A DNA stretch of 64,000 bases. Origin: an uncultured Bacteriovoracaceae bacterium (GTDB lineage Bacteria > Bdellovibrionota > Bacteriovoracia > Bacteriovoracales > Bacteriovoracaceae). Positions 4,630 through 29,881 of this stretch are shown here, piece by piece (positions within the stretch are counted from its first letter, which is position 1; each line of letters opens with the position of its first letter). The stretch covers positions 68,987 through 132,986 of the forward strand of contig CAXGUD010000007.1 in assembly GCA_964012805.1 (NCBI GenBank), in the 5' to 3' direction. The notes under the pieces were generated by a model. That model was given only the letters and a program-made list of their open reading frames with translations, searched no databases and was not told the origin of the DNA. The translations under genes and the position numbers were made by a program.

Positions 4630-5532
4630 ATGGAAAAAGAGCTTTTGCTTCGTGAAAAAGAGATTAAGAAAGTTCTTTTAATAGTCCTATTTCTTAATCT
4701 TTTTATTGCTGCTTTAAAAATTGGCGTAGGCTTTAATTCTCATTATATCTCTCTAGTCTCTTCAGGGATTGACTCTTTATTTGATAGTGCTTCCAATTGC
4801 CTGGCACTCATTAGCATTTACTTTGCTTTTAAACCCGCAGATTCAGGCCATAACTATGGTCATTACAAATTTGAAACTTTTGGCAGTTTAGTGATTGGGA
4901 TACTTATTCTTTTCTCCGGTGTCCAATTTCTATTGAGTATGAACCTTTTTGGAAAAAAGCTTTTTAAAGAGCCTGTTTTCAGCATTTTTCCTTTCGTTTC
5001 TGTTCTTGTGTCCACTGCAGTTAGCTTTTTTGTTTCTAAGTATGAGAAAAAGAAGGGTAAAGAGCTCTCCTCTTCCATTCTTAATTCAGATTCCGCTCAT
5101 ACCTATGGAGATTTCTTGATAGGTTTCGGGGTTTTAATATCTCTTGTATTTTCTTATTTCAGAGTCTACTGGGTAGATGTCTTCGTAGGGGGGGCCATAG
5201 GTTTATACCTCTTTATTTTGGGCATTGAAATTCTGAGAAAGAACCTGCCGGAACTTTTAGACGGCTCTCCTGTTATTGAAAAAGAGCTTGTTAAAAAAGT
5301 AGAAGAAATTGAACATATAAAAGACATTCATAAGTTTAGGGCCAGAGGCAACCAGAACTGTATGTTTATAGACTTTCATCTCTTACTTGATGAGGACCTA
5401 TCTCTAAAGGAAGCTCATAAAATTGGGCATGACGCAGAGGGAATGATTAAGAACCTCCTTGAAAAGTATGCCAGGAAGATTGATGTTACAGTTCATGTAG
5501 AGCCCTATGAAGAAAATCATCTTGATGATTGA
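4630..5532 (+). CDS. Cation diffusion facilitator transporter (FieF-like)
   Basis: Multiple TM helices, DSLFD, KPADxxHNYGHxKFE, SAHTYGD, C-terminal domain ending VTVHVEP. Confidence 0.9.
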   Translation: MEKELLLREKEIKKVLLIVLFLNLFIAALKIGVGFNSHYISLVSSGIDSLFDSASNCLALISIYFAFKPADSGHNYGHYKFETFGSLVIGILILFSGVQFLLSMNLFGKKLFKEPVFSIFPFVSVLVSTAVSFFVSKYEKKKGKELSSSILNSDSAHTYGDFLIGFGVLISLVFSYFRVYWVDVFVGGAIGLYLFILGIEILRKNLPELLDGSPVIEKELVKKVEEIEHIKDIHKFRARGNQNCMFIDFHLLLDEDLSLKEAHKIGHDAEGMIKNLLEKYARKIDVTVHVEPYEENHLDD

Positions 5533-5547
5533 AATTAAAGGACTTGG

Positions 5548-6048
5548 GTGTTAGAGAGGGGCATGGAACTTTCTCCCACATATTCTCCAAATAAGAGGAT
5601 TCTTTACACCAAAACAAAGTTGCCGGCGATGTTTTGGAGCAAGGATCTAGCGAAGGTCGACCAAATCGTCAATTCGTCCAGTGATTTGTTTTTTGCGTCA
5701 GGATGCTCGGTTTTACACTTTCCTGGAAAGTATGGAGAAAAAGAAATGAGCTTTTTGCCCTTAGACGATGATAGTTTTTTCGTTGGAAGGGAGGTAACTG
5801 GCTTTTTAGATTTGGCTCCGGGTTTTTGGTTTTTGGATTTGCCAGAGTGCGAACAAGTAACTTTTAAGCTTCCTAATGACTCTACTTTCGAGGACTTGGT
5901 GTCGCGAAGTGAAGAGATTTCAGGAAGTTTGCCATTAGAGTTTGTTGATAAGCTTCTTTTGAAGCATGTTTCCATCTTTGAAGATAAGGAGAAAGATGGT
6001 TTGGCAGGGCTAAGTGTTGAGCTACAATATTTTTTTGGGTGGACTTGA
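5548..6048 (+). CDS. Hypothetical protein
   Basis: 166-aa ORF co-oriented with its neighbours and filling the gap; no recognisable motif. Confidence 0.55.
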   Translation: MLERGMELSPTYSPNKRILYTKTKLPAMFWSKDLAKVDQIVNSSSDLFFASGCSVLHFPGKYGEKEMSFLPLDDDSFFVGREVTGFLDLAPGFWFLDLPECEQVTFKLPNDSTFEDLVSRSEEISGSLPLEFVDKLLLKHVSIFEDKEKDGLAGLSVELQYFFGWT

Positions 6049-6147
6049 CGAGTCGCATTTTTGTATCTTAAATAGTCTATTTTTATAGGTTAATAGTGAT
6101 TAATGGAGTAACAAAATAATAAGTTTCTTTTCAAATGGAGGTAGATC

Positions 6148-6768
6148 ATCGGAGAGAATAAGGTAAGAGACAGCAAAAAAAAGGGTCCTAGAGTAAACTC
6201 TGCGATTCGCTTAGTTGAGTGCAGGTTAATAGGTGATGATGGAACTCAGTATGGTATTGTCTCAATGACTGAAGCTAATAGAATTGCTGAAGAACAAGGA
6301 TTGGATTTGGTTGAGGTTTCCCCAACGGCAAAGCCTCCTGTAGTTAAAATAATTGACTATGGGAAATTTAAGTATATGCAGCAGAAAAAGGCAAACGAAG
6401 CTAAAAAGAAGACGGCTACGGTTCAATTAAAGGAAATTCAGCTTAGACCAAATATTGAGTCTCACGACTTAGAAACAAAGTTGAAAAGAGCTTATAAATT
6501 TTTAGACCAAGGCGATAAAATCAAGATGGTCCTCCAATTTAGGGGGCGTGAGATGAGTTATCGTGAGAACGGAATGAAAAAGTTCCGAGCTATAATTGAG
6601 AAGGTTGAAGAGTATGGTGCAGTTGTTGAGTCTGAGCCTAAAATGGTTGGGACTCGTATAATAGCCATTCTTGCATCGTTAAAAAAACCTGTAAAAAAGC
6701 CTGAAGGAAAACCACAAAAAAAGGAAAAAGGTAGCAATAGTGCTTCTAAGGATAACGTAAACGCCTAG
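6148..6768 (+). CDS. infC: Translation initiation factor IF-3 with a non-canonical ATC start
   Basis: GLDLVEVSPTAKPPVVKIIDYGKFKY and LKEIQLRPNI motifs. The IF3 N-terminus (PRVNSAIRLVECRLIGDDG) continues in frame upstream of 6265 to ATC codons at 6145/6148. These are bounded by an in-frame TAG at 6142, and GGAGG sits at 6137-6141. Confidence 0.92.
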   Translation: MGENKVRDSKKKGPRVNSAIRLVECRLIGDDGTQYGIVSMTEANRIAEEQGLDLVEVSPTAKPPVVKIIDYGKFKYMQQKKANEAKKKTATVQLKEIQLRPNIESHDLETKLKRAYKFLDQGDKIKMVLQFRGREMSYRENGMKKFRAIIEKVEEYGAVVESEPKMVGTRIIAILASLKKPVKKPEGKPQKKEKGSNSASKDNVNA

Positions 6769-6910
6769 AATATATAGTGTTTACTAGTTTTGTGCTGCGA
6801 GTTGTTCTCAGTTAAGAGAATAAGCCACCAAGGATTTACAAAGGCTTTAAGAGCTGATAGAAGAAACCTCCTCTTAGGAGAATTTAAATTAAACTTGAAG
6901 GGATTTTATT

Positions 6911-7108
6911 ATGCCAAAGATGAAAACGAGAAAGTCCGCCGAAAAACGATTTTCTGCGACAGGTAGCGGAAAAATAAAGCGTAGAAGAGGTGGTCTCAGA
7001 CACAATCTTGGTAAGAGAACGACAAAGTCGAAGACTCTTGCAGGAAAAACAGACTACGTTCATGAAGCTGATGAAAGCAGAATTCGTAGAATGTTGCCTT
7101 ACCTATAA
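6911..7108 (+). CDS. rpmI: 50S ribosomal protein L35
   Basis: MPKMKTRKSAEKRFSATGSGKIKRR...MLPYL, between infC and rplT. Confidence 0.97.
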   Translation: MPKMKTRKSAEKRFSATGSGKIKRRRGGLRHNLGKRTTKSKTLAGKTDYVHEADESRIRRMLPYL

Positions 7109-7226
7109 TCTTATCTAGCTTTTGATTGAGGTTATTTTAGAGAAGGCTTGTAGTTAATTGAACAGAGTCTTGGGAAACAAAGATCTTGCTTAGAAAGACC
7201 CCAAGAATCGTGAAGGAGAATGAAAA

Positions 7227-7571
7227 ATGGCACGTGTAAGAAGAGGCTTTAAAGCCAGAAGAAGAAGAAACAAAATTTTGAAGAGGGCCAAAGGCTTTCA
7301 ATTTGATAGAAGAAGAAAGTTTCGTCATGCTGCTCAGACAGTCGTTAGAGCCATGCACTACTCTTATATCGGTAGAAAACTATTAAAGAGAGATATGAGA
7401 AGGCTTTGGATTCAGAGAATTAGTGCAGCATCTAAGACTGTAGGAAGTTCTTATTCAAAGTTTATGGGTGCGTTGAAGAAAAAAGGAAGTACTCTTAACA
7501 GAAAAATGTTGTCAGAGATTGCAGCAAGAGACTTTGAAGGATTTAAAGCTATTGAGCAAAGCCTTCATTAA
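7227..7571 (+). CDS. rplT: 50S ribosomal protein L20
   Basis: MARVRRG...KILKRAKGF...KRDMRRLWIQRISAA...LNRKMLSEIA. Confidence 0.97.
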   Translation: MARVRRGFKARRRRNKILKRAKGFQFDRRRKFRHAAQTVVRAMHYSYIGRKLLKRDMRRLWIQRISAASKTVGSSYSKFMGALKKKGSTLNRKMLSEIAARDFEGFKAIEQSLH

Positions 7572-7605
7572 GCCGACTTAGAACAAACTACTTTTTGAAA
7601 ATAAT

Positions 7606-7638
7606 AAAAAACCTCTTTTATAAAAGAGGTTTTTTTTT
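7606..7638 (+). terminator. Intrinsic terminator after rplT
   Basis: Inverted repeat AAAAAACCTCTTTTA/TAAAAGAGGTTTTTT followed by a T tract. Confidence 0.8.
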
Positions 7639-7805
7639 GTCTTTTTCCAATAGAAGAAAATAATTATCTAACTTAATCATTCTTCTGTTAGGTTTTTCTT
7701 GTCATTTTGTGAAAGTTCTTTTTAAAATTTTCATCGATAAAAATTGTTGAACGGTTGTTGTTCAAAATATTTCTAAGGGCCTCAAGGATCATTAAGGAGT
7801 TTTTA

Positions 7806-8714
7806 ATGAAGAAGCTTTTTAAAAGCTTAATGGTTATCGCTTTAATCTTCCCATCTTTGTCATATAGTTGCGATGAGCATGGCTTAACAGGAATCATGGA
7901 AGAGAATGATCTTTATATTGGCCCTCATGAAAAAGGGGTTTCGAAGGTCTCTTATGCAGATTTCAAGGATGTTATTGAAAGAATAACAAGGTTGTATGAA
8001 AAGGACTTTGAAAAAAGAGGTTTAAAGCTTTTTATCCAAGACAGTTGGGCAAACGGTAGTGTTAATGCTTATGCTCAAAGAAAAGGTCGTACGGCTTTAG
8101 TTAATATGTTCGGTGGTATAGCCCGTCATGAAACAATGAGTAAGGATTCATTGGCCCTTGTTACTTGTCATGAACTAGGACATCACATTGGAGGAACTCC
8201 AAAGAAAGAGCGTTCAGGGTATGGTTATGGAAGTTCTGGGAGAAAAGTCTACACATGGGCCAGTAATGAGGGGCAAGCAGACTACTTTGCTTCCATGAAG
8301 TGTTTGAGGCGTTACTTTGAAAGAGAAGATAATGTGAAGGCAATAGAAGATAAAGAGGTTCCATCTTTTGTAAGAATTTCTTGTCAAAATCAATTCAACT
8401 CAGCTGAAGACGTTGCAATTTGTATAAGGAGTGCCTTGGCGGGGTACTCTTTGGCCAACCTTTTTAATAGTATTAGAGGACGTTATTCTTTATTAAGCTT
8501 TGAAAATAAAGATCCATCTAGAGTGCTAAAGACTTATGACAATCATCCTGCTCCACAATGTCGTTTAGATACTTATTTTGCAGGTGCTTTATGTGATAAG
8601 GATTTATATGATGAAGTTAGTGATAGTCAAGTTGACAAGGGTGTTTGTTCAAGAAGAGAGGGCTATGTAATTGGAGTCCGACCTCTTTGCTGGTTTAGAC
8701 CTTTTTATCAATAA
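7806..8714 (+). CDS. Secreted zinc metalloprotease (HEXXH, M48-like)
   Basis: Signal peptide MKKLFKSLMVIALIF after AAGGAG; VNAYA, CHELGHHIGG, NEGQADY; Cys-rich C-terminus. Confidence 0.75.
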   Translation: MKKLFKSLMVIALIFPSLSYSCDEHGLTGIMEENDLYIGPHEKGVSKVSYADFKDVIERITRLYEKDFEKRGLKLFIQDSWANGSVNAYAQRKGRTALVNMFGGIARHETMSKDSLALVTCHELGHHIGGTPKKERSGYGYGSSGRKVYTWASNEGQADYFASMKCLRRYFEREDNVKAIEDKEVPSFVRISCQNQFNSAEDVAICIRSALAGYSLANLFNSIRGRYSLLSFENKDPSRVLKTYDNHPAPQCRLDTYFAGALCDKDLYDEVSDSQVDKGVCSRREGYVIGVRPLCWFRPFYQ

Positions 8715-8720
8715 TTAATC

Positions 8721-9665
8721 TCAATATGTAGATGAGCAGCTAGAACCACCTAGAACGCAGAAGCTTGAGCAGAATGGGTGGTTCAAGAATACTTTTTTCG
8801 ACGATTCCGATAAAGACTCACCGAGCTCGAATTCTTTATTGTAAGGAATGAGAGTGCAGGCTTGCACTTTTGTTTTGTTTTGGCCTTTAGGCTTTACCAC
8901 CATCCTTTCTGAAGAGCACATTAGAGACTCAGGGCCTTTTCCTAAGATAGACCAACAAGATGTTGTAATTTCAGGAGTGTTAAGGTTTTTTGAGTCCATT
9001 TCAGGGAAAAGAACAAGGTTGTCTTCACTCAAACTTAGGGGCACTTCATGTTTTTTAAAAAGAGATTTGAACCCATCAAGAGCTTCAGTATAGCTTTCTG
9101 ATTGGAGGAACCTTCCTGCGATGCTGACATTAAAACTTTTGCTAATGAGCCAACCGATACTTTCAAGTGTCGGTAAAAAAGTATTATATCCTCTTTCCTT
9201 TTCATGAACTTCTTTTGTGAAGTGGTCTAAAGATACCCTTAGAAATAGCTTGTCAGGAAAAAGTTGATTGAGGGTAAGAAGTTTTTTATCCCACCTTGAA
9301 ATCACTTTATATGCATTTGTTAATACAAGGGCCTTATGACCTGCTCGTAAAATAGTTTCAATAATATTAATAATATTTGGGTTTAGGAAGGGTTCACCCC
9401 CTGTAATGCCAATAAGTTCTACTGGTAAAGAGTTCTCTTCTATTTCTTTAATGTAAGGAAGAACATCATCTTTTGTAAGGTAGAGGAGGCGGTCATTTTT
9501 TGGACTAGACTCGATATAGCAGTTTTGGCACTCTAAGTTACAAAGTGTTCCAGTATTGAACCAGAGGGTCTTAAGCTCACCCATGTCAACGGAAGCTCTT
9601 TCCTCACCCTTTAATGTTTTAAAAGGGTCTTGGAATTTTAGTTTATTGTCCAAAGTTTTTCCCAT
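8721..9665 (-). CDS. Radical SAM protein with Cys-rich C-terminus (ArsS-related)
   Basis: CNLECQNC (CX3CX2C), TGGEP, LRVSLD, C-terminal LMCS...FCSSFCVLGGSSC. Its ATG directly abuts the methyltransferase stop. Confidence 0.85.
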   Translation of the reverse strand: MGKTLDNKLKFQDPFKTLKGEERASVDMGELKTLWFNTGTLCNLECQNCYIESSPKNDRLLYLTKDDVLPYIKEIEENSLPVELIGITGGEPFLNPNIINIIETILRAGHKALVLTNAYKVISRWDKKLLTLNQLFPDKLFLRVSLDHFTKEVHEKERGYNTFLPTLESIGWLISKSFNVSIAGRFLQSESYTEALDGFKSLFKKHEVPLSLSEDNLVLFPEMDSKNLNTPEITTSCWSILGKGPESLMCSSERMVVKPKGQNKTKVQACTLIPYNKEFELGESLSESSKKVFLNHPFCSSFCVLGGSSCSSTY

Positions 9666-10757
9666 TTAGCAGCAAGATATTGAAGGGTCTTTTTCTTCAG
9701 GGCCGCTTTTTTGAGGTTCATTGTCGTAGGAAAGCTCATGGACAATAGTTTTGGAATTGCAATTTTGAAATATTCCATGATGAGTGTCCCAACTTCCTGC
9801 AAATTCAAAGTATTTTCTCATTCTGCTTTGGTTTAACATAAGGTAAGTATTGCCACATACTTCTTTAAATTTTCCTTTTGGAAAGGTGTGTTCTTGATCA
9901 AGCTTTATCGAGTGGGGCGAACCATCCAAATTTCCCTTGTAACAGACAGCTTGTCCATAATCTTCACAATCAGGTTCCAGGTCCTGAATTTTAAAAAGCC
10001 TGTAGGTAATAGAGTAAAACTTGATAGGGTCGACAAGATTTCTTACCTCTTTATTCATAATATCAACTGGTTTAACAGAAACAACTCTTGGGTCTTTAAA
10101 TCCAGCATTTTTAGCAAGGTTTGAAAAATCATTCCAATAGAGGGCCCCACTTAAGCATTCACCATAAAGGAGTTCATTATTAGTGAGGTGTTCGGGAATT
10201 CTCCTGTCTGAGTAAATGTCTGAGAAATAAAACTCACCACCAACCTTTAAAAGCTTATAAGTGTCTTTAAGAACTTTTTCTTTATTCGGTACGAGGTTAA
10301 TGACACAGTTAGAGACGATTAGATCAAAAGAATTGAGTTGCAAAGAAGTATCGAGTATATTTTCAATTTTTCCATGAACAAATTTTAAGTTTTTATCCTC
10401 TAAGTCAAAGAGTTCTTCATGGTACTTTTTGTGTTTTTGAGCTATTTCAATTTGCTCTTTAGTCATGTCGACACCTACAACGCGCCCTTTTTTCCCGGCC
10501 AAAGAAGCAAGTATAAAACTATCTCTACCTGAACCTGAACCAAGGTCCAAAATATGGGACCCTTCAATAGCTTCTGGAATGATAAGTCCACACCCATAAA
10601 ACTTTTCATTGACTTCCGGATGTATGGAATTGATTAGGTCTTTTAATTTTTTTGACGCTTTTAGGTCTATGCTACAAGCAGAAGTTTTTAGGTCACGGTT
10701 TGTTTTTAAAACTTTCCCATAGTAGTTTTTAACACTTTCTTCAATATTATTGTTCAT
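9666..10757 (-). CDS. arsM: Arsenite S-adenosylmethionine methyltransferase (ArsM/AS3MT-like)
   Basis: YYGKVL...KTSAC, FYGCGLIIP, ILDLGSGSGRD, GVDMT, VSNCVINL, YGECLSGAL (four AS3MT-type Cys), C-terminal CC. Confidence 0.85.
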   Translation of the reverse strand: MNNNIEESVKNYYGKVLKTNRDLKTSACSIDLKASKKLKDLINSIHPEVNEKFYGCGLIIPEAIEGSHILDLGSGSGRDSFILASLAGKKGRVVGVDMTKEQIEIAQKHKKYHEELFDLEDKNLKFVHGKIENILDTSLQLNSFDLIVSNCVINLVPNKEKVLKDTYKLLKVGGEFYFSDIYSDRRIPEHLTNNELLYGECLSGALYWNDFSNLAKNAGFKDPRVVSVKPVDIMNKEVRNLVDPIKFYSITYRLFKIQDLEPDCEDYGQAVCYKGNLDGSPHSIKLDQEHTFPKGKFKEVCGNTYLMLNQSRMRKYFEFAGSWDTHHGIFQNCNSKTIVHELSYDNEPQKSGPEEKDPSISCC

Positions 10758-10861
10758 AACTTATCCTTTTAAATTAAGGTTTGGGTAAAGTTAAGGTTGC
10801 CTTTTCTTATTAGTTTCATAGGGAACATATAATCATTGAGTAGAAAAAAGGAAGGAAAAAA

Positions 10862-11740
10862 TTAAATTTTATGTTTGTGAAGAAACTTTTTTTTACCATT
10901 ATGTTTTAGCCAACATTCACCCCACGCATTAAGTTCTATAACCCCTCTTTCAATTTGGGGAGGTGCTTCTTTTTTATCATTGTTTGTACGTTCTTTTTTA
11001 ATGATTAAGGAACTTCCAATCATAATTTGAGGCTGTGCTAAATAGTTATCTTGCAGGTTTTCTTTATCTTTTAAAAAGAGGTTTCTCTTAACATCTGAAG
11101 AGTTCAAAAAAGGATTCATAATGGATAAACTCTTTTCTCCATTATGATGGGGTAAGCCAAGAAGGTGACCTAGCTCATGAAGGAGAACAGTTGGAAGGTC
11201 GTAATGAAAGCTTTCTTCTTCATTCATTGTAAAAATATAATCTCTGTAATTGAATATAATATCTGCATGAATGAGCTCAAGGTACTCTGATGATGTTCCT
11301 TTATTTCTTCTTATTCCAAAATATTGTGTGATAGCTAGAACGCCATCTGGCAATTCTTCGAACCACTTGTAAGACTTATAGACACCTACTTCGTCATCAT
11401 TGAATTCGTAAAGAGTTTCATAGTTTCTATTTTCAGTGAATTTAGCAGGAGTATTAAATATTTTTTTATTTATTATACTTTTATCCCAATTTACTAACAT
11501 TTCATCTAACGTTGTAAAGTCTTCTTTAAGATGATCTCTTTCAAGAAAGTCGTTTTGAAAATCTTCTGAAAAATTTAATTTAATAGGTAGGTTTTCTGTG
11601 TCCCATCTCATAACTTTTTTAGTTAACTGAGATGATTGGTCATGGTAAGAGTTTAAATTTAGATACTGACCATCTTTCCCACAGCTAAAAAGAAAAAAGA
11701 GCAAGATAAAAAACGAGCTTTTATTTGAGAAGGCTTCCAT
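10862..11740 (-). CDS. Matrixin (M10)-family metalloprotease lipoprotein
   Basis: Lipobox-like LFSC, GVLAIT, ADIIFN, HELGHLLGLPH (HEXXHXXGXXH), SIMNP Met-turn. Confidence 0.85.
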   Translation of the reverse strand: MEAFSNKSSFFILLFFLFSCGKDGQYLNLNSYHDQSSQLTKKVMRWDTENLPIKLNFSEDFQNDFLERDHLKEDFTTLDEMLVNWDKSIINKKIFNTPAKFTENRNYETLYEFNDDEVGVYKSYKWFEELPDGVLAITQYFGIRRNKGTSSEYLELIHADIIFNYRDYIFTMNEEESFHYDLPTVLLHELGHLLGLPHHNGEKSLSIMNPFLNSSDVKRNLFLKDKENLQDNYLAQPQIMIGSSLIIKKERTNNDKKEAPPQIERGVIELNAWGECWLKHNGKKKFLHKHKI

Positions 11741-11770
11741 CTCTCCATCTCCTAGAAGTTCTATGAAGAT

Positions 11771-11797
11771 TTATCGGATGAAAGCCTGAAAATATGA
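11771..11797 (-). promoter_or_regulatory. Sigma28 (FliA)-like promoter upstream of the matrixin gene
   Basis: Minus strand reads TCAT-N15-TCCGATAA; consensus is TAAA-N15-GCCGATAA. Confidence 0.5.
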
Positions 11798-11819
11798 GGG
11801 TTCTTATTTAGCTAGCTTT

Positions 11820-12470
11820 TTAATTTAAATTATTTGCTTTTTTATGGTCATTTAAAAAAGCTTCTAGCCCTTTATCTGTTAGCGGATGCTTAAAAAGAGA
11901 TTTAACGACTTTAAAAGGCATAGTTGCAACGTCAGCACCAACCATTGCGGCTTCTCTTACATGTAAAGCATGTCTAATGGAAGCGGCCAAAATTTTTGTC
12001 TCAAAGCCGTAGTTATCATAGATATTCCTTATTTCTTCAATAAGGCCTGGTCCATCATGCCCTATATCGTCTAGGCGCCCAATAAATGGGGAAATGAAGG
12101 TCGCGCCATTTTTGGCAGCAAGAAGTGCTTGGTTCACAGAAAAACAGAGTGTTACATTTGTTTTAATTTGATTGTCGCTAAACCACTTACATGCAGTAAT
12201 TCCTGCTTCTGTAAGGGGAAGTTTTATAACAACATTTTCGTGAATATTAGCGAGTTCTTCACCCTCTTTGATCATGCCATCTACATCTGTTGCGATAACC
12301 TCAGCAGATATCGGTCCGTTAACAATTTCTACAATTTCCTTTATAACATCAAACTGGTTTCGGCCTGATTTAGCTATAAGGCTAGGGTTTGTTGTCACAC
12401 CATCAATGATACCCCACTTGGCTGCTTCCTTAATTTCATTTACTTCACCTGTATCAAGAAAAAAGTCCAC
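11820..12470 (-). CDS. tal: Transaldolase / fructose-6-phosphate aldolase family (TalC/MipB type)
   Basis: [51 protein letters not shown]. Confidence 0.93.
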
Positions 12471-12587
12471 TATGGTCCCCTTATGTTTAAGTCTGCTATT
12501 AGTTGAATAAAAGATTTAAATCAAAGGCAAAATAACAGTCAGATAAAGGAGAGACAAGTTTTCCAGGATACCTTTTTTTGCTATTGT

Positions 12588-13430
12588 GTGTCACTTTATA
12601 GTATGGGAACTAAGTCTGTGCGTTCAATTATTGTTTTTAATCTTATGTCTTTTTTCACGTTCAATTTGCTTCAGTTATTTGTGCTGCAAAAAACGTTAGC
12701 TGATGATTTTGCTAGAGAGAGTGAACCTAAGCTTCAAAAAAAATTAAAAGATAAGCTTGAAAGTCTTTTTGATCCAAATTTGGATTATAAAAAGTTTTCA
12801 GGTCGTATGACTGATAGAGATAAAGTCGGAGATATTTTGAAGGTCTTCACTGAAAATAAAAACATCAAATTTTTTAGACCTGGTGATCCCCTTGAGTTTC
12901 GCTTACCCAACCAAAGTGATTCCTTATGTCGGGGGTTCATAAAGGTTGTGGAAAAAGATTATCTTACTCTTTATGTTAAGAACCTCTTTAGTTGTTTTAA
13001 AAAAGGTGAGTATATGAGAAGAGGCTCTCAAATGGTCTTTTATGCACCTGTTTTGGAGGAAAGGATAAAGGATGCTGGCTTGTACAGGGTGATTCTTCTG
13101 AGGAAAAAAGAAGAGTATTGGAATCAGTTGAGAAAAATGAACCAATTTATTTGGAATTATGACCAGAGAAAAATTAAAGTTTCAGCTGATTATGATAAGC
13201 GGATTGTAGCTTTAGAAAATAAAAAGAGGAAGGAGCTTGATATTCTATTAGGAAAAAAAAGAGATCAAGTTCTTTTGCAAAAGGAAATCGTAAAAAAAAT
13301 AGAAATGTTGGATAGTGATTTAGACTTTTATATAATAGATCAATATGAACCTGAGCTAGATCGGTGGCACCTAGACCATGACTTAGGTTTACCAGTCGGG
13401 AAGAAACCTCAAAAGAAAAAACAAATATAA
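12588..13430 (+). CDS. Hypothetical exported protein with coiled-coil C-terminus
   Basis: Long ORF with a hydrophobic N-terminal segment and a charged helical C-terminal half. Confidence 0.6.
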   Translation: MSLYSMGTKSVRSIIVFNLMSFFTFNLLQLFVLQKTLADDFARESEPKLQKKLKDKLESLFDPNLDYKKFSGRMTDRDKVGDILKVFTENKNIKFFRPGDPLEFRLPNQSDSLCRGFIKVVEKDYLTLYVKNLFSCFKKGEYMRRGSQMVFYAPVLEERIKDAGLYRVILLRKKEEYWNQLRKMNQFIWNYDQRKIKVSADYDKRIVALENKKRKELDILLGKKRDQVLLQKEIVKKIEMLDSDLDFYIIDQYEPELDRWHLDHDLGLPVGKKPQKKKQI

Positions 13431-13466
13431 AAACTATTTGAATTGAATCAAATACGGGGTAACTGT

Positions 13467-14408
13467 CTAGTGAAATAAATCTGAATAAATATGTTTTGGT
13501 AAATGTTCTTTGTAGTGTTTTAAACTGTAGCTTGGAGCGACCCCCATCCATTCCTTAATGTTTTCTTCATTCTTATCTTTAAGCCAGTTAAATATACAAG
13601 CTTGTCTTAATGATCTAGGAGTAAGCTCTATTTTTAAATTCTCGCTGTACTCTTTAAAGATGATTTCAAGCCCCCTGGAAGAAAGTCCTCCTGATAAAAT
13701 TTTATAGGGATTGGCATTGAAAAGGAGTTCTTCAAATTCAATGTTTTGATTTGCCATTTCTATTTTTAATAAGTCCAAATATTTAACTAAAAAGTTGTCA
13801 AACTCATTGGGAAGAGGAATTGAAAAAGGGTCTCTTTTTGGAGGAGTTAGCATAACTCTTGGGTTTTTTCCTAAAAAAATATGACACCTTTTTAAGCATG
13901 ATAGATCAGAAACTTTGAGTCCTCCTTTAAAAATAAGAAGAGTTATAATTAGATTTCTAAATGAGATTAGCTTTTGCAGGTTTTTAGATTCATCTATTTC
14001 CTGCAAAAGGTGATTCCAAAATATTTTCAAATTCTTAAAGCTTGTTGGTCTTGGTACATCAAGAAACTTGGGGGATGTTGGTATAGACCTTACTGGGTTA
14101 TTAGGAACTTCACCTTCGGAAAGCAAAAAATCAAAAAAGTTTCTTAACGTTTGAAGTCGTCTTCTTCTGGAATTATCTGAAGAATACTTTTTATCTAAAA
14201 AGTGAGCATAATGCCGAATAAGAGAGTTTGTGAGTGATTTTCTGCAGGGAACCCACCCATTATCATTTAGGAAGTTATTGAAACAATTCAGGTCAGTTTT
14301 ATAATTTTTTAGAGTGTTGGGGCTTTTACCTTGTTTTTCGCATTTATCAATAAAATTTATTTGTTGCTTGAAAAAAAAGGCATGAGTGGTATCTATTTGT
14401 TTTTCCAA
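13467..14408 (-). CDS. XerC/XerD-like tyrosine recombinase-fold protein with degenerate catalytic motifs
   Basis: SAM-like N-domain (SPNTLKNYKTDL, SRRRRLQTLRNFFDFL, NP). Catalytic boxes read GLKVSDL, TPRSLRQA, WMGV...KHY. Confidence 0.8.
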   Translation of the reverse strand: MEKQIDTTHAFFFKQQINFIDKCEKQGKSPNTLKNYKTDLNCFNNFLNDNGWVPCRKSLTNSLIRHYAHFLDKKYSSDNSRRRRLQTLRNFFDFLLSEGEVPNNPVRSIPTSPKFLDVPRPTSFKNLKIFWNHLLQEIDESKNLQKLISFRNLIITLLIFKGGLKVSDLSCLKRCHIFLGKNPRVMLTPPKRDPFSIPLPNEFDNFLVKYLDLLKIEMANQNIEFEELLFNANPYKILSGGLSSRGLEIIFKEYSENLKIELTPRSLRQACIFNWLKDKNEENIKEWMGVAPSYSLKHYKEHLPKHIYSDLFH

Positions 14409-24556: not shown

Positions 24557-27500
24557 TTATTGACAGTAAATGTGATGATTCCACCTAAAGCCTTGGAGGA
24601 ACCTTGTTGTCCCGGTGTCATTTAAGGTATCGCTATCAAGCACTGAATCAATAATACTATATTTTCTTGATTGGTCAGGTGTTTGTTCCTGTTCAAAAAA
24701 ACCGCTATTTGGTTCAGGGTAAAAATAACCAAAAGCAGCACCTCTTCTTATCTTTTTGTCATAGCAATACTCTCTCCCAAGAGCTTCAAGCTTATTAAAG
24801 GTTTCTCGATTTAATTTGGGTTCACCTGTTTCAGGAATATAGTTTGATTCAGAAAGTCCGCCTGCGGGTAATGTTTTGCCGTGTCCTTCTCCAGATACAA
24901 ACCTATTGAAGTAGACGTTAAGATTTGTCCCTGGAGGAAGCTTACAAACTTCTACGGTTTGTCCCACTTCATTTTTTTCACTCACTGTATAGTTACTACA
25001 ACATGACTCTTTGGATGGAGCAGTTTCTCCCAGTTTCATGCAGCATTTAAATTTATGAGGTGAAAATACTTTTCCAAGCATAACTTTATCTTGGAGAACA
25101 ATATGACCATCTGGGTTTGAAATATCATTTGTTTGATCAAGTGCTGAGCCTGTTTCGTAATCGTAAATTTGTCCTAAAGATCGCCCACTTGAATAGTTTT
25201 TGGTTCTATCGTATTGGAAGGACGTACCAGATTTCTCAAATTGTGTCCTAGTGTGGGGTGATATACTAAATATATTTTCAACAAGTTGACTTCTATCTGT
25301 ATTGCAATAAATAGGTTCATAAAAGATTTGAGGAATACCCATAAGCTCAAACCTTGAGAGTTTTGTAAGGTAATAAAGAGCATTTCCAGGGTTAAGTCTC
25401 GTATCGGACGTAGCTGTTGTTTTATAAGAAGGACCTGTATCGCTCGGGTCATATTTAAAAATCGTTGTCCCTATAGGGTTAAAATTAATTTCAACTCCAG
25501 CATAATTCCAAGGATCATTTTCATTAGGATCAGGGTTATCAGCAGATTGATCTGCCTTTATATGGAAAATTTGATAACCATTTGTAAGAGTCTCAATACA
25601 CCAACGTTCGGGGTTTGAGAAGGCCCTTGGGTTGGTCTTATTCGGTGTGATGGTGGGGTCACAATATGCTGGGTCTTCAATTGCAGTTTCTGACCAAGTC
25701 GTTTGATCCGAGACATACTTTATTGAAACACTATTTATATTTGATTTACCCCCAATATAGATGGGTAAATAAAAACTTACGGCATCGTGAAAGGATCTTG
25801 TTGCAAAATAATTATAAGGACCAGAAGATGCTATAGGTGTAGGGTTAGCGTAAGGGGTTGGCATGTAAGGAGATTCAAAAGACATCAATTGTTTAACTGG
25901 AGAACCAGTAACTGGAGTTTCTGTTGGTGTTGTATCCATTTTTGTATCGTCGTTTGTAGAATCTGTTGGGTAGGAAAGTTCATAACCAGCAACTGAAGGT
26001 ATTGAAACCTGGATACAGCCTCCATACTCAGGAGATAAACATAATTTTTCGACATCTTTATTGTAGTTTTTAGTACTAACAGCATCACTATCTAGGCATG
26101 AGGTGGATGAATTTGTTGAGCAATTATTTGTTGGAGGATAAAAGCTCACTGGCGACATATAGTTGAGGCAGCTAAAAGCGGCCACATCAAAATTAATGCG
26201 TGGGTTTTGGGTCCAATCGTTTGTATCATCTGCAAATTTTCTGATCCATCCACCTCCACAACATGACCTTCTTGCGGTTTCGTGAATTGTTTTCCACTGA
26301 AATTGCTTGGGAGTATCAGGTGTTCCATCCGATTCTGTTCTAAGTATGGGAAGCTGACTGTATGGGTCAGGTGTGGCATCATTGACACTTGTGGCATCCA
26401 CAAAATCTATAATACTAAATCTTGAGTAACGACCATCGGTAGAAGGCGAATTATGAGGAAGGGTGTCTGAGGAGAGGTCATCATTGCCAGTTCCCTGTTC
26501 AGGGATAAGATCTGGGTCGTTAACACCCTTTTTATACTGGGTATATATCGTGATGTCTTTCCCTACTTCTCTACAGCAACGATTCTTTGTCATATCATAT
26601 TTTTCGTAATCGTAATCAGTCAGAGATGGCTGTTTTTGGGCCTGTCCACATACAAGAGATTCTTTCCAATAATCATGTTCGGCATCGGTGTTACCAAAGT
26701 AAGACTTGTCTAGTGTCAAAGCTTCTCTCTCGTGAAGAATATTAGGTGTACAGTCAAGGTCAGTATGGCAAATGGAACCTGCCCTTCTGAGGCAAGCACT
26801 TCCAACTAGTGTTTGTTCTTCTAAAAAGGCGAGCGAATCTATTCTTTTTGCTTCAATTCTTTCAAATGTAGACTTGTCATTATATATCGATTCACCACCA
26901 CAAGAGTTTTGGTAGTGAAGTTCTTTTTGATATTCTGGAGTAACTAAATTATTCGAGTTATCGCCTGTGATATCAGTTATATAGTTACCATAATTAATGC
27001 TTTTTATATCTCTTTCAAATAGAGGACAAGTAATAACTCTATTGGCGCCAGTTGATGTTTCATCACATGACGAAATTTGTGAAATATAATCTGTCCTTTT
27101 TTGGCTATCAGGATTTTGATGTTGATCAATTACTGGAGAAGTCGTTGTTGTTGTAATTATTTTTTTTCCTGGTCTGCATAGGCCGAAATCTGAAGTATCA
27201 CTACTATATAATGATGCATGATGAATAATAGAAGATTTGGCAGAGTCGGGTAATATTGCCGTTGCACCTACATATTTTTCTGGTCTTCCTAAGGTATTGG
27301 CCTGCTGGCCGTATTGAATGGATGAATAAAGGTTAGGAACTCTCATCACTTTATCATTAAAGACATTGTCACCATAGCTAGCACAGTAAAAATTAGGAGC
27401 ACAGGTAAAAAGTTTTTGGTACTTCTTATCTAAATCATCTTTAAAGTTTCTTTTACAAAGAGAACCAGCTCCTCTATAAACACACCTTTTTGTTGTCGAT

Positions 27501-29881
27501 CCAGAAGGAGGAAATTTTGAAAGAATTGTTGAAAAACTTGCTTTGTCTATTTGCTCATTAGCAACTTCATTTGAATCCTTATCAAATTTAGGCCAGCTTG
27601 ACACCAGTTTAGAGACGTCGGCACAACTATATTCCCACCCTAGCTTTGCTACACAATCAAAATCTTTTACACATTGATGGAACTGTCTACATGACCCACC
27701 CTTATTTTGTTCAGGATGATCTATTCCTAAGGATGGATTATAATCAAACTGGCTTACAGAGTTGCTTCCTAAGTCAACCATCACGGAAACCGTAGTTGAA
27801 GTAGGATCAGAAAGGTCAGCAAATGGAGCATTAAAAGCCAAAAAGAGCTTTGTGCTTGTAGAGGTTACTCTTCTTCCATTTCCAATTGAAAACCAGCTCA
27901 CACCATCAAAGCTTCCAACAATTGATCCTTTATTAAAACCATACCAGTCTCTTTGATAGCCATTAATAAAAAGAGCAGCTTGAGTTTCAAGCCTATTTTT
28001 TCTTTGCGTTTGTAGGTCTGGATTTTTTACATGGCTAAAAGCAATCATTGTTGGAGGCAACCAGCAGGCCCTACCAAAAATTGTATCCTCATAGTTTCCA
28101 TTAGAAATATTATTTTCATATGAGTATCTTTTTGTTGAATATCCAGCTGCTTGAATCCCTTTACCATTTTGGGAAAATGGATAAGCGGTTAGAGAAGATA
28201 ACCAAGTATCTTTTTTGCATTGTGGACATGGAGTGAAGAAACCTTTGATTGCACTAATTATATATTGTCTATCGTACTCGACGTTAAGAACTTTTGCAGG
28301 TACGGCCGCATCGAGTGATACATTGATAGGACCCAAGATAGCATTCATACTATAAGCACTCATTTCTGGTTCAGTTTTTCCTTTATTATCTTGATAAAAG
28401 AAAATATCGCCTTCTTGGTCTTTTGATTGATCTGTTGAAAGAATAAAAGACGTCATATCATCTACACTAGATCCATCTGTCTTTTTGAAGAATCTGTGAG
28501 GTGTGGTTCTTCCGTTAAGTTTAATTTCTAATTCTTGAAAAGGAGTTTCACTAGGGTCAATATTTGGAACTTCACATTCAAATCGGAGAATTGTACCGAC
28601 GAGGTTCTTGATAGGCCTCAAACTATAGTTCGGGCACAGGAGGTTATCAGGAGATTCTGGCAAAGGGTCTGCTTTACATCCACACCTTTTCCAAACGATG
28701 TCCCTAATTTTTTTATGACAATCTTCAGGTTGCTCTCCATAGCAGACGGTAGTCTGCTTTGAAGAATCCAAGTATGAAAGATAAGGGTATGAATCTGCTG
28801 AAGGGTCTGAAGTGCTGCAAACATTATTGTTTACAAAGTCAGGAGTGTCTTTTTTTCCTTCTTCAAGGCAATCGTAGTAATATCCATCCTGTTTGAAATT
28901 CCACTGTGCTTGTTCGAGATTATTATCGCTTGAAGGTGGCGTACTCGGAACATCTTGAGCGTAATTTGGGCATATGTAGTAGATATGAGGGTAGAAAACT
29001 TTATTTTTGGAGTCTGAAATTACATCTTGAAGGGCTTGATCATAATCAGGATAAGAAGAGGCTCCTGGTTTTACCCCACCATCATTTACACATTGATTGT
29101 TAAGGCAGCAATCAAAACCTGTGGCTTTGCAAGTTGAATTATTGCAACGAGAGTCACCAATTTGAGAACTTATATTTGGTGAAAGAATTTCTATGCCAAA
29201 CCCTAAGAGTGATAACTTTTCTTTTGAAACTTTATTATCTTTTGTAAGAGGAATATTACCGTTCGTATCTGTGTTCTCTTCATAAAGTGAAATATGACTC
29301 GAAGAAATTTGTGTTGAACAACTAGGGCAAATGTCACTATTTTGAAAAGAAGTAGCAGCGGTTCCTGTCGCAGGGTTGGTCGAGGAAATTACTGTACTGC
29401 TGATGATATTGTTTTCTGTAAAAGGGAGATCACCACTACATCGATCCTTACTTTCGCTAGAGCTTTTCAGGTCTAGTCTTAGGAGTCTTTCTAACGTTTG
29501 ATTTGAAAAATTTGTAAAGGTTATGGGTATTGCCTGGACTCTAAGTTGAGTCTTTGTGTTATCGGGCAATATGAAATCACTTACGATGCAATATTTTTTT
29601 GCTGCATTTGTTTTGTACTTTAGGAAGTCGTGAATAAGTCTACCCCTCAAATAAACAATCGAAGTATTTTCACGGCTAATAGAGACGAGCTTTCCGTTAT
29701 TTTGAGATGTGTACCAATAGAGCTCCCCGGCCGAGCCAAATGTAGGATTTTTGGCCGGTGTTTTTTTTGTAGATAATTTTGACTTCCTCATATTTCGAGG
29801 AACTTCCTCTACCAAACAAGAGGTTAAAAAAATAAGAAGGACGAAAAGTATATTTTTTCTCATTATTTCAGTCATTTCCAT
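24557..29881 (-). CDS. Giant cysteine-rich lipoprotein (1774 aa), function unknown
   Basis: Lipobox LTSC after MRKNILFVLLIF (start may be 29863); 57 Cys by manual count; S/T/D/P-rich linkers. Confidence 0.85.
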   Translation of the reverse strand: MEMTEIMRKNILFVLLIFLTSCLVEEVPRNMRKSKLSTKKTPAKNPTFGSAGELYWYTSQNNGKLVSISRENTSIVYLRGRLIHDFLKYKTNAAKKYCIVSDFILPDNTKTQLRVQAIPITFTNFSNQTLERLLRLDLKSSSESKDRCSGDLPFTENNIISSTVISSTNPATGTAATSFQNSDICPSCSTQISSSHISLYEENTDTNGNIPLTKDNKVSKEKLSLLGFGIEILSPNISSQIGDSRCNNSTCKATGFDCCLNNQCVNDGGVKPGASSYPDYDQALQDVISDSKNKVFYPHIYYICPNYAQDVPSTPPSSDNNLEQAQWNFKQDGYYYDCLEEGKKDTPDFVNNNVCSTSDPSADSYPYLSYLDSSKQTTVCYGEQPEDCHKKIRDIVWKRCGCKADPLPESPDNLLCPNYSLRPIKNLVGTILRFECEVPNIDPSETPFQELEIKLNGRTTPHRFFKKTDGSSVDDMTSFILSTDQSKDQEGDIFFYQDNKGKTEPEMSAYSMNAILGPINVSLDAAVPAKVLNVEYDRQYIISAIKGFFTPCPQCKKDTWLSSLTAYPFSQNGKGIQAAGYSTKRYSYENNISNGNYEDTIFGRACWLPPTMIAFSHVKNPDLQTQRKNRLETQAALFINGYQRDWYGFNKGSIVGSFDGVSWFSIGNGRRVTSTSTKLFLAFNAPFADLSDPTSTTVSVMVDLGSNSVSQFDYNPSLGIDHPEQNKGGSCRQFHQCVKDFDCVAKLGWEYSCADVSKLVSSWPKFDKDSNEVANEQIDKASFSTILSKFPPSGSTTKRCVYRGAGSLCKRNFKDDLDKKYQKLFTCAPNFYCASYGDNVFNDKVMRVPNLYSSIQYGQQANTLGRPEKYVGATAILPDSAKSSIIHHASLYSSDTSDFGLCRPGKKIITTTTTSPVIDQHQNPDSQKRTDYISQISSCDETSTGANRVITCPLFERDIKSINYGNYITDITGDNSNNLVTPEYQKELHYQNSCGGESIYNDKSTFERIEAKRIDSLAFLEEQTLVGSACLRRAGSICHTDLDCTPNILHEREALTLDKSYFGNTDAEHDYWKESLVCGQAQKQPSLTDYDYEKYDMTKNRCCREVGKDITIYTQYKKGVNDPDLIPEQGTGNDDLSSDTLPHNSPSTDGRYSRFSIIDFVDATSVNDATPDPYSQLPILRTESDGTPDTPKQFQWKTIHETARRSCCGGGWIRKFADDTNDWTQNPRINFDVAAFSCLNYMSPVSFYPPTNNCSTNSSTSCLDSDAVSTKNYNKDVEKLCLSPEYGGCIQVSIPSVAGYELSYPTDSTNDDTKMDTTPTETPVTGSPVKQLMSFESPYMPTPYANPTPIASSGPYNYFATRSFHDAVSFYLPIYIGGKSNINSVSIKYVSDQTTWSETAIEDPAYCDPTITPNKTNPRAFSNPERWCIETLTNGYQIFHIKADQSADNPDPNENDPWNYAGVEINFNPIGTTIFKYDPSDTGPSYKTTATSDTRLNPGNALYYLTKLSRFELMGIPQIFYEPIYCNTDRSQLVENIFSISPHTRTQFEKSGTSFQYDRTKNYSSGRSLGQIYDYETGSALDQTNDISNPDGHIVLQDKVMLGKVFSPHKFKCCMKLGETAPSKESCCSNYTVSEKNEVGQTVEVCKLPPGTNLNVYFNRFVSGEGHGKTLPAGGLSESNYIPETGEPKLNRETFNKLEALGREYCYDKKIRRGAAFGYFYPEPNSGFFEQEQTPDQSRKYSIIDSVLDSDTLNDTGTTRFLQGFRWNHHIYCQ

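Follow-up and report, generated by a model that had tools for sequence, protein, structure and literature searches.

Which reaction is catalysed by a radical SAM enzyme whose gene directly follows that of a predicted arsenite methyltransferase in an uncultured Bacteriovoracaceae bacterium? Such a pair lies in the window, i.e., the whole stretch of DNA that was analysed (64,000 nucleotides; Table 1). The first-pass annotation had proposed that the radical SAM enzyme, here called X, belongs to a clade other than ArsS that is tied to ArsM, and that it may form a C-As bond, yielding an arsenosugar, an arsenolipid or a new arsenical. The linkage of X to arsM and its position outside the ArsS clade support a non-ArsS family that is likely a C-As bond former. 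We adjust the proposal as regards the product: X and ArsS stand in for each other next to an ArsM of one type, so an ArsS-type product is favoured over a new arsenical.

Table 1. Features of the arsM-X pair and of genes near it (positions in the window)
Feature	Position	Strand	Remarks
ArsM/AS3MT-type arsenite S-adenosylmethionine methyltransferase, 363 aa	9666..10757	-	Cys 28, 56, 151, 201 and terminal CC
Radical SAM enzyme X, predicted ArsS substitute, 314 aa	8721..9665	-	PF04055 is the sole Pfam domain; lacks DUF3641
TAA-ATG junction, 0 bp gap	9663..9668	-	read from sequence; translational coupling presumed
CX3CX2C motif (C42, C46, C49), predicted radical SAM [4Fe-4S] site	9519..9542	-	invariant in 158/158 aligned members
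X C-terminal Cys region (C237, C250, C270, H296, C299, C303, C310)	8736..8957	-	predicted to hold an auxiliary cluster of the Twitch/SPASM type and/or to bind arsenic
Matrixin gene (PF00413), upstream neighbour of the pair	10862-11740		Pfam match
Convergent downstream neighbour, HELGH motif, likely signal peptide	7755-8714		no Pfam or NCBIfam match
Cation-efflux (CDF) gene, not an arsenic pump	4630-5532		Pfam scan of window

As had been described, the methyltransferase stop codon directly abuts the start codon of X. The pair is divergent in the sequence sense, but in orientation its genes are co-directional. Of the two proteases said to flank it, the upstream Matrixin is backed by a domain match, and the downstream gene owes the label to its motif, since it matches no Pfam or NCBIfam model. 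No ars-family gene was found among the 44 of 61 ORFs of the window scanned with Pfam (the other 17 were judged by eye to be housekeeping genes or too short), in keeping with the earlier reading, but the stated lack of efflux genes is qualified by the CDF gene. Likewise, ArsM is stand-alone at this locus only, because relatives carry a DUF547 gene between the two genes and the genome has TIGR04283-, TIGR04282- and DUF547-like genes dispersed on other contigs. In relatives, ArsM-DUF547-X occupies the same spot, after transaldolase and matrixin genes, and the window pair is a reduced form of this arrangement. Among named relatives, the closest one that shares this arrangement of genes is a MAG of the Halobacteriovoraceae, at 84% identity, which is compatible with a predatory lifestyle but is no test of it.

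Promoter and terminator scans at the locus were at chance level (6 vs 9.7 and 2 vs 2.4, respectively), and Rfam gave no matches across positions 6000-14000. Four RNA-type runs each contained one contig of 170-260 nt with at least 99% identity; three of these contigs lie on arsM and the fourth on X, and none spans both genes, which does not amount to proof of transcription. The window DNA is present in marine or seawater metagenomes from five studies, possible sources having been left out.

The top PDB matches of the methyltransferase (METHYLTRANSFERASE) are the arsenite methyltransferases 5EVJ (E 5.6e-92, residues 5-339) and 4FR0 (E 8.5e-85), which we take to be algal enzymes. All of the cysteines reported for it are present, namely C28 (TSAC), C56 (YGCG), C151 (SNCV), C201 (GECL) and the terminal C362-C363; none of the first four varies across the 31 aligned relatives, every one of which ends in a Cys pair. 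The protein has the defining features of ArsM/AS3MT, as it belongs to the class I SAM methyltransferases, keeps the four conserved cysteines and matches solved ArsM over its full length, and ArsM-type methyltransferase activity is predicted on this basis. Its scores fall under the NCBIfam ArsM cut-offs (best PRK11873, 166 vs 263 bits; NF040538, 136 vs 500; NF038099, 98 vs 400; 25 of 48 families listed), presumably a subtype effect, as these models describe other ArsM subtypes.

X is a member of a large, unnamed radical SAM family (7752 of 7999 candidates at E 0.001 or better) and, as judged by its sequence, is homologous to ArsS along its length. Profile-profile comparison with ArsS gave 99.2% probability over 275 columns, and BLAST against an ArsS gave 27% identity over 160 residues. 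The motifs listed for X at first pass are all present; the protein has C42-x3-C46-x2-C49, the signature LWFNTGTLCN...YIESSPKNDRL, and C237, C250, C270, C299, C303 and C310. C250/270/299/303/310 align with the invariant ArsS C255/270/306/309/317 (P0273 numbering), and X shares with ArsS the combination of CX3CX2C and five C-terminal cysteines. It lacks the invariant ArsS C107 and C137 and has a C237 of its own. Across the 158 close X members, none of the nine cysteines varies, nor does H296; in 32 more divergent ones C237, C303 and C310 are conserved at only 90% or more.

X is not a canonical ArsS. It scores 56 bits on TIGR04167 (cut-off 300), in the core region only, and lacks PF12345 (DUF3641) at E 0.01, a domain that 120 of the 120 ArsS homologues among the matches listed carry; these results and its separate clade (see below) refute that assignment. 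The TIGR04167 profile run on this genome returned X as its top match and no ArsS above cut-off. The best NCBIfam score among the families listed was to the uncharacterised Rv1681 family (NF049973), also the nearest branch in the tree, and 82 bits against a cut-off of 380 (a genuine member scores 536) refute membership. That match spans the core only, and the two Rv1681-type proteins examined lack the C-terminal Cys set of X; one relative of this family lies with GT2, TIGR04282-like and PhnD-like genes.

The AlphaFold model of X (pLDDT 94; 80 for the predicted ArsS model) most resembles SPASM/Twitch enzymes, at 12-18% identity: BlsE (Z 19.6, rmsd 3.4, 246 aligned), SkfB (Z 18.5), SuiB (17.7) and MoaA (16.4), with Foldseek concurring. 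Fold alone shows no function, and unlike those systems the X locus has no precursor peptide or moa context. The C-terminal Cys spacing and the fold matches of the predicted model are compatible with a possible SPASM/Twitch auxiliary Fe-S cluster. A PDB sequence search with X gave only weak YydG/EpeE matches (E 1.5e-4), ArsS entries were found in neither the sequence nor the fold searches, and ESM Atlas returned only unnamed radical SAM clusters. No description of the X family was found in the literature searched, whose coverage stopped short of most subscription journals and all supplements; the phylogenomics of Cheng 2021 could include it.

ArsM, ArsS and ArsL are the only established SAM-dependent C-As bond formers in the portions available of the arsenic literature (PMC12159101, PMC7826186, bioRxiv 10.1101/2024.02.01.577332, and the ArsS sources cited below). 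The arsinothricin pair ArsL+ArsM resembles the window in that ArsM adjoins a radical SAM enzyme; in ArsL, which forms a C-As bond, the C-terminal cysteines are implicated in arsenic binding, according to the available part of its description. ArsL as described there is 428 aa long, its CX3CX2C lies at 194-201 and its terminal motif is RCCLKC/CCXXC, whereas X has 314 aa, its motif at 42-49 and the tail CSSFCVLGGSSC, with no such motif. X is thus not an ArsL, as compared with the published description. The window also differs in having no ArsQ/GntP-type transporter beside the pair and in its ArsM, which stays far under the arsinothricin model (NF040538).

In a 28-row tree, X (100/98) and ArsS (100/100) form mutually separate clades, and X joins the Rv1681 pair at 89/86, not ArsS. 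This tree holds a 51-row set minus 23 rows, including four of the five longest outgroups, and ArsL is absent from it; a quick tree of all 51 rows separates X and ArsS in the same way. The comparison proposed at first pass therefore places X outside the ArsS clade, with the qualification that a constraint grouping the window protein with the ArsS sequences gave a borderline p-AU of 0.0545. Sisterhood of X and ArsS is absent from the 28-row tree, yet is not rejected (p-AU 0.19; 0.12 with Rv1681), and branches are long.

Genomes of the host family provide a closer view of the link to ArsM. Of 71, 27 carry a full-length ArsM, and all 27 also carry X (24), ArsS (2) or both (1, G026); among the other 44, X occurs in 7, ArsS in 1 and neither in 36. 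The ArsM count excludes one weak match (G625), and these are related genomes, not independent ones. X was found partly via sub-threshold TIGR04167 matches confirmed at the locus, so weak members may be missed. As the first-pass annotation had anticipated, X homologues are linked to arsM: the two lie within about 2.5 kb in 18 of the 24 host-family genomes having both, and an X-ArsM fusion exists. X has no accompanying ArsM in 7 of 32 genomes of the host family. In the 20 loci fetched from 29 matches in the phylum, ArsM is present in 12, DUF547 in 7, a TIGR04283-like gene in 3 and TVP38/MerA-like genes in 2. One ArsS locus (L160) reads DUF547, TVP38/MerA-like, TIGR04283, ArsM, ArsS, and one X locus (L154) reads TIGR04282, X, DUF547, ArsM, MerA-like. 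In this family, X and ArsS thus take each other's place next to an ArsM of one type, with shared partner genes.

Beyond the host family, X and ArsS have complementary distributions. In a sample of 301 genomes of Alphaproteobacteria X occurs in 97 and ArsS in 3, and in 121 genomes of Gammaproteobacteria ArsS occurs in 58 (57 of 120 without the unpublished genome G676) and X in 3; neither sample has a genome with both, and we assigned the class names by inference (classes of G303 and G304, respectively). All three gammaproteobacterial X genes adjoin ArsM. TIGR04283 is found at E 1e-30 in 121 of the 301 alphaproteobacterial genomes (106 above cut-off), including 96 of the 97 with X against 25 of the 204 others, and 22 genomes have it with neither X nor ArsS. 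The long ArsM type occurs in only 7 of the 97; a broader ArsM profile matched 13 of 40 genomes with X and 2 of 40 lacking it, leaving out G367 (a non-ArsM methyltransferase). The remaining 27 of the 40 X-positive genomes have no ArsM-like match, with the cyanobacterial ArsM type in 0 of 18 of those. However, genomes with canonical ArsS likewise include some in which ArsM was not detected (3 of 3 alphaproteobacterial ArsS genomes and a Synechococcus elongatus control), and ArsM-free occurrence therefore does not separate X from ArsS.

In 37 alphaproteobacterial loci (not a random set; ORFs taken stop-to-stop), X adjoins metZ in 21 and ArsM in 3, the latter having been picked for it. Of 8 loci tested, 7 have a SAM-II riboswitch after X and before metZ; since metZ has its own riboswitch there, we set this adjacency aside as a functional clue. 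TIGR04283/TIGR04282 pairs in this class lie mostly in housekeeping-like contexts, apart from X. Among 80 metagenome loci (the best 80 of 581), many of them short, at least one partner of the ArsS-cassette type was present in 29 and ArsM in 5; for the 44 of these that are at least 6 kb long, the counts are 20 and 3. Fusions also connect X to such partners. The X-ArsM fusion is P0168, with a cluster mate named Deferribacter thermophilus; TIGR04282 is fused to X in P0126 (above cut-off) and P0215 (below), and TIGR04283 in P0253 (below cut-off, with a truncated X portion). The commonest fusion partner is a metallophosphoesterase: almost every one of the best 120 long forms listed carries PF12850. 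On a Roseomonas plasmid, X lies with TIGR04282, DUF547, a metallophosphoesterase and an ABC importer of the PhnD/PhnE type, with no ArsM among the 16 features of the 15 kb covered.

The known system closest to these loci is ArsM+ArsS (Synechocystis SsArsM/SsArsS; ArsS, TIGR04167, is a DDMAA synthase), which shares with the window an ArsM beside a CX3CX2C radical SAM enzyme with an aligned five-Cys C-terminus. Its cassettes and X loci have in common TIGR04282, TIGR04283, DUF547, TVP38, a MerA-like oxidoreductase, an MTAP-like gene and a metallophosphoesterase. The window differs in that its ArsM is of the long algal-like type, well under the cyanobacterial AsSugarArsM cut-off (NF038099), and in that X fails TIGR04167 and the genes for later steps are dispersed. 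Of the ArsS-cassette partners, only ArsM is linked to X in this genome; TIGR04283-like and TIGR04282-like genes lie on other contigs, both below cut-off, and an MTAP-like gene gave no match with one query. The genome also encodes a glutaredoxin-type ArsC above cut-off, a thioredoxin-type ArsC below it and two long ArsP_1-domain proteins. ArsR (PF01022), ArsB and an over-cut-off Acr3 were not found with the queries used, and ArsM could therefore be the main arsenite sink.

We consider it probable, by analogy, that X adenosylates dimethylarsenite as ArsS does. This is favoured by its either-or occurrence with ArsS in the host family (27/27 genomes with ArsM, 8/44 without), the fusions to ArsM, TIGR04282 and TIGR04283, the complementary spread of X and ArsS between the two proteobacterial classes, and the co-occurrence with TIGR04283 and excess of ArsM-like genes in X-positive alphaproteobacterial genomes; the full-length homology with five aligned C-terminal cysteines points the same way. 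Against it stand the many alphaproteobacterial X genomes without ArsM, the failure to recover X as sister to ArsS, the low identity (27%) and different Cys set, the genome that keeps both enzymes, the 22 genomes with TIGR04283 alone, the scarcity of ArsM beside X (3/37 alphaproteobacterial loci, 5/80 of the best 80 of 581 metagenome loci), and, in this genome, sub-cut-off and unlinked TIGR04283/TIGR04282-like genes with no MTAP-like match to the one query.

In the available portions of the ArsS literature (PMC13598754, PMC8552651, bioRxiv 10.64898/2026.04.29.721666), the reaction is redox-neutral, a 5'-deoxyadenosyl radical acting on dimethylarsenite to give DDMAA (PMC13598754), and is followed by adenine removal and sugar transfer (bioRxiv 10.64898/2026.04.29.721666). 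The scheme for X starts from the observed gene layout, motifs, family separation, ArsS swapping and fusions and draws each chemical step by analogy. Arsenate would be reduced by an ArsC encoded elsewhere in the genome, and ArsM would methylate the arsenite twice. X could then cleave SAM at its CX3CX2C cluster, and the 5'-deoxyadenosyl radical, as copied from ArsS, would add to the As(III) of dimethylarsenite to form DDMAA, with an electron returned to the cluster. The C-terminal cysteines of X may bind either the arsenical or a further cluster. Adenine removal and sugar transfer would come later, via the dispersed TIGR04283- and TIGR04282-like genes, and could lead to an arsenosugar or arsenolipid.

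It is unlikely that X fills the same pathway slot with another substrate or product, e.g., adenosylating methylarsenite before the second methylation or making a 5'-arsenical nucleoside different from DDMAA, to give a new organoarsenical. A core Cys pattern unlike that of ArsS, the separate clade, the retention of both enzymes in G026 and the prominence of PF12850 metallophosphoesterase among the fusions would fit such a difference. However, X and ArsS exchange beside one ArsM type with the same partners, and the same metallophosphoesterase family occurs near ArsS in 2 of 3 alphaproteobacterial ArsS loci.

We also regard as rather improbable an ancestral role of X with TIGR04283/TIGR04282 outside arsenic metabolism, in which another scavenged small substrate (a reduced P, Se or S species) is adenosylated or otherwise modified, with ArsM recruited secondarily in some lineages. 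X is present in about a third of the sampled Alphaproteobacteria, mostly without ArsM, and PhnD-type genes accompany it on the Roseomonas plasmid, as they do the related Rv1681 family. But canonical ArsS, with published arsenic activity, shows the same ArsM-free occurrences, the importer would equally suit uptake of environmental methylarsenicals, and every full-length ArsM in the host family is accompanied by X or ArsS.

It is very improbable that ArsM is a lone detoxifying methylase and X an unrelated passenger. X can occur without ArsM in the host family and often adjoins metZ, and with the queries used the genome yielded neither ArsR nor ArsB nor an Acr3 above cut-off; against this, X and ArsM are fused in one protein and adjacent in three distant lineages, none of the 27 host-family ArsM genomes is without a partner radical SAM enzyme, and metZ has its own riboswitch in 7 of 8 loci. 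That X is simply a divergent member of TIGR04167, and the pair a known arsMS system, is hardly credible despite the full-length profile homology and the borderline forced nesting, as its bit score, its lack of DUF3641 and the opposite, strongly supported branches of X and ArsS largely refute family membership.

With adenosylation of dimethylarsenite as the preferred reading, X is best seen as a widespread stand-in for ArsS more than as a local oddity: the family is very widespread, neither rare nor specific to predators. X would be a further family of C-As bond formers, with members in 97 of the 301 alphaproteobacterial genomes sampled, and the abutting arsM-X unit offers a minimal construct for direct testing. 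A broader possibility, which we put forward tentatively, is that X arose separately from ArsS as a second radical SAM family able to form C-As bonds, and that it is the chief such family in Alphaproteobacteria and Bacteriovoracaceae. Together with TIGR04283/TIGR04282, X would then let roughly one in three alphaproteobacterial species, the majority having no ArsM of their own, scavenge methylated arsenic into arsenosugars or arsenolipids, of a structure possibly unlike the ArsS product. A partly bacterial origin has been proposed for the arsenosugar lipids of the surface ocean, the producers being as yet unnamed in the portion available of that report (bioRxiv 10.1101/2021.03.22.436501). X is annotated merely as a radical SAM protein and is not an ArsS, and surveys based on arsS only would therefore likely miss candidate producers. 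If the broader possibility holds, heterotrophs and predators would constitute a large source of organoarsenic compounds in the sea that has so far gone unrecognised.

The interval between the gene for X, the large unnamed radical SAM family predicted to substitute for ArsS, and metZ holds a SAM-II riboswitch in seven of eight loci (L069, L072, L080, L084, L087, L091 and L098). A tRNA gene lies within about 2 kb in 7/8 of the X-metZ loci examined for this riboswitch.

X-positive Alphaproteobacteria also encode an ArsM subtype of ~390 aa with an internal insertion (L115-L119). Its top match is the arsinothricin ArsM model (359/500 bits), and X is unlinked to it in these organisms. Within Bacteriovoracaceae, a single genome (G026; L025, L163) carries two arsS-arsM pairs together with one X gene.

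X also occurs in other cassettes. On a Roseomonas plasmid (L140:4034-14909) and at L223, X shares its cassette with a second, TrsS/Tes-like radical SAM gene, DUF547, a metallophosphoesterase and an ABC importer of the PhnD/PhnE type; ArsM is absent from the stretch in view. A Marinobacter plasmid (L139:7818-8874) has an unannotated X-family gene that is apparently broken by a frameshift, with a sodium:solute symporter downstream.

Other genes in the window and its genome are listed below. The secreted HELGH-motif protein, which is conserved, has no Pfam or NCBIfam match, and relatives keep the integrase/XerD-like gene at the same spot.

Other genes in the window and in its genome (G000)
Feature	Location	Remarks
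Secreted HELGH-motif protein	window 7755-8714	Convergent on X, stops 6 bp apart
Integrase/XerD-like gene	window 13467-14408	Match limited to N-terminal SAM-like domain
1774-aa ORF	window 24557-29881	Lipoprotein-like start; no hit to Pfam at E 1e-5
Tandem pair of long membrane proteins with ArsP_1 domains	G000:C4:56494-60231 (L173)	Unlinked to arsM

Genes for a PhnD-like protein and an acyl-CoA dehydrogenase accompany radical SAM genes of the uncharacterised Rv1681 type (L141:5946-7762, L143:5977-12076), and one of these two loci also contains GT2 and TIGR04282-like genes. The Rv1681-type loci may form a third branch alongside X and ArsS.

An MTAP-like nucleoside phosphorylase is a repeated neighbour of both ArsS and X (L106-L108, L078, L146, L155, L186, L233, L247, L248), and it stands alongside ArsS in all three alphaproteobacterial ArsS loci. 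This phosphorylase is a candidate enzyme for the removal of adenine in arsenosugar synthesis.
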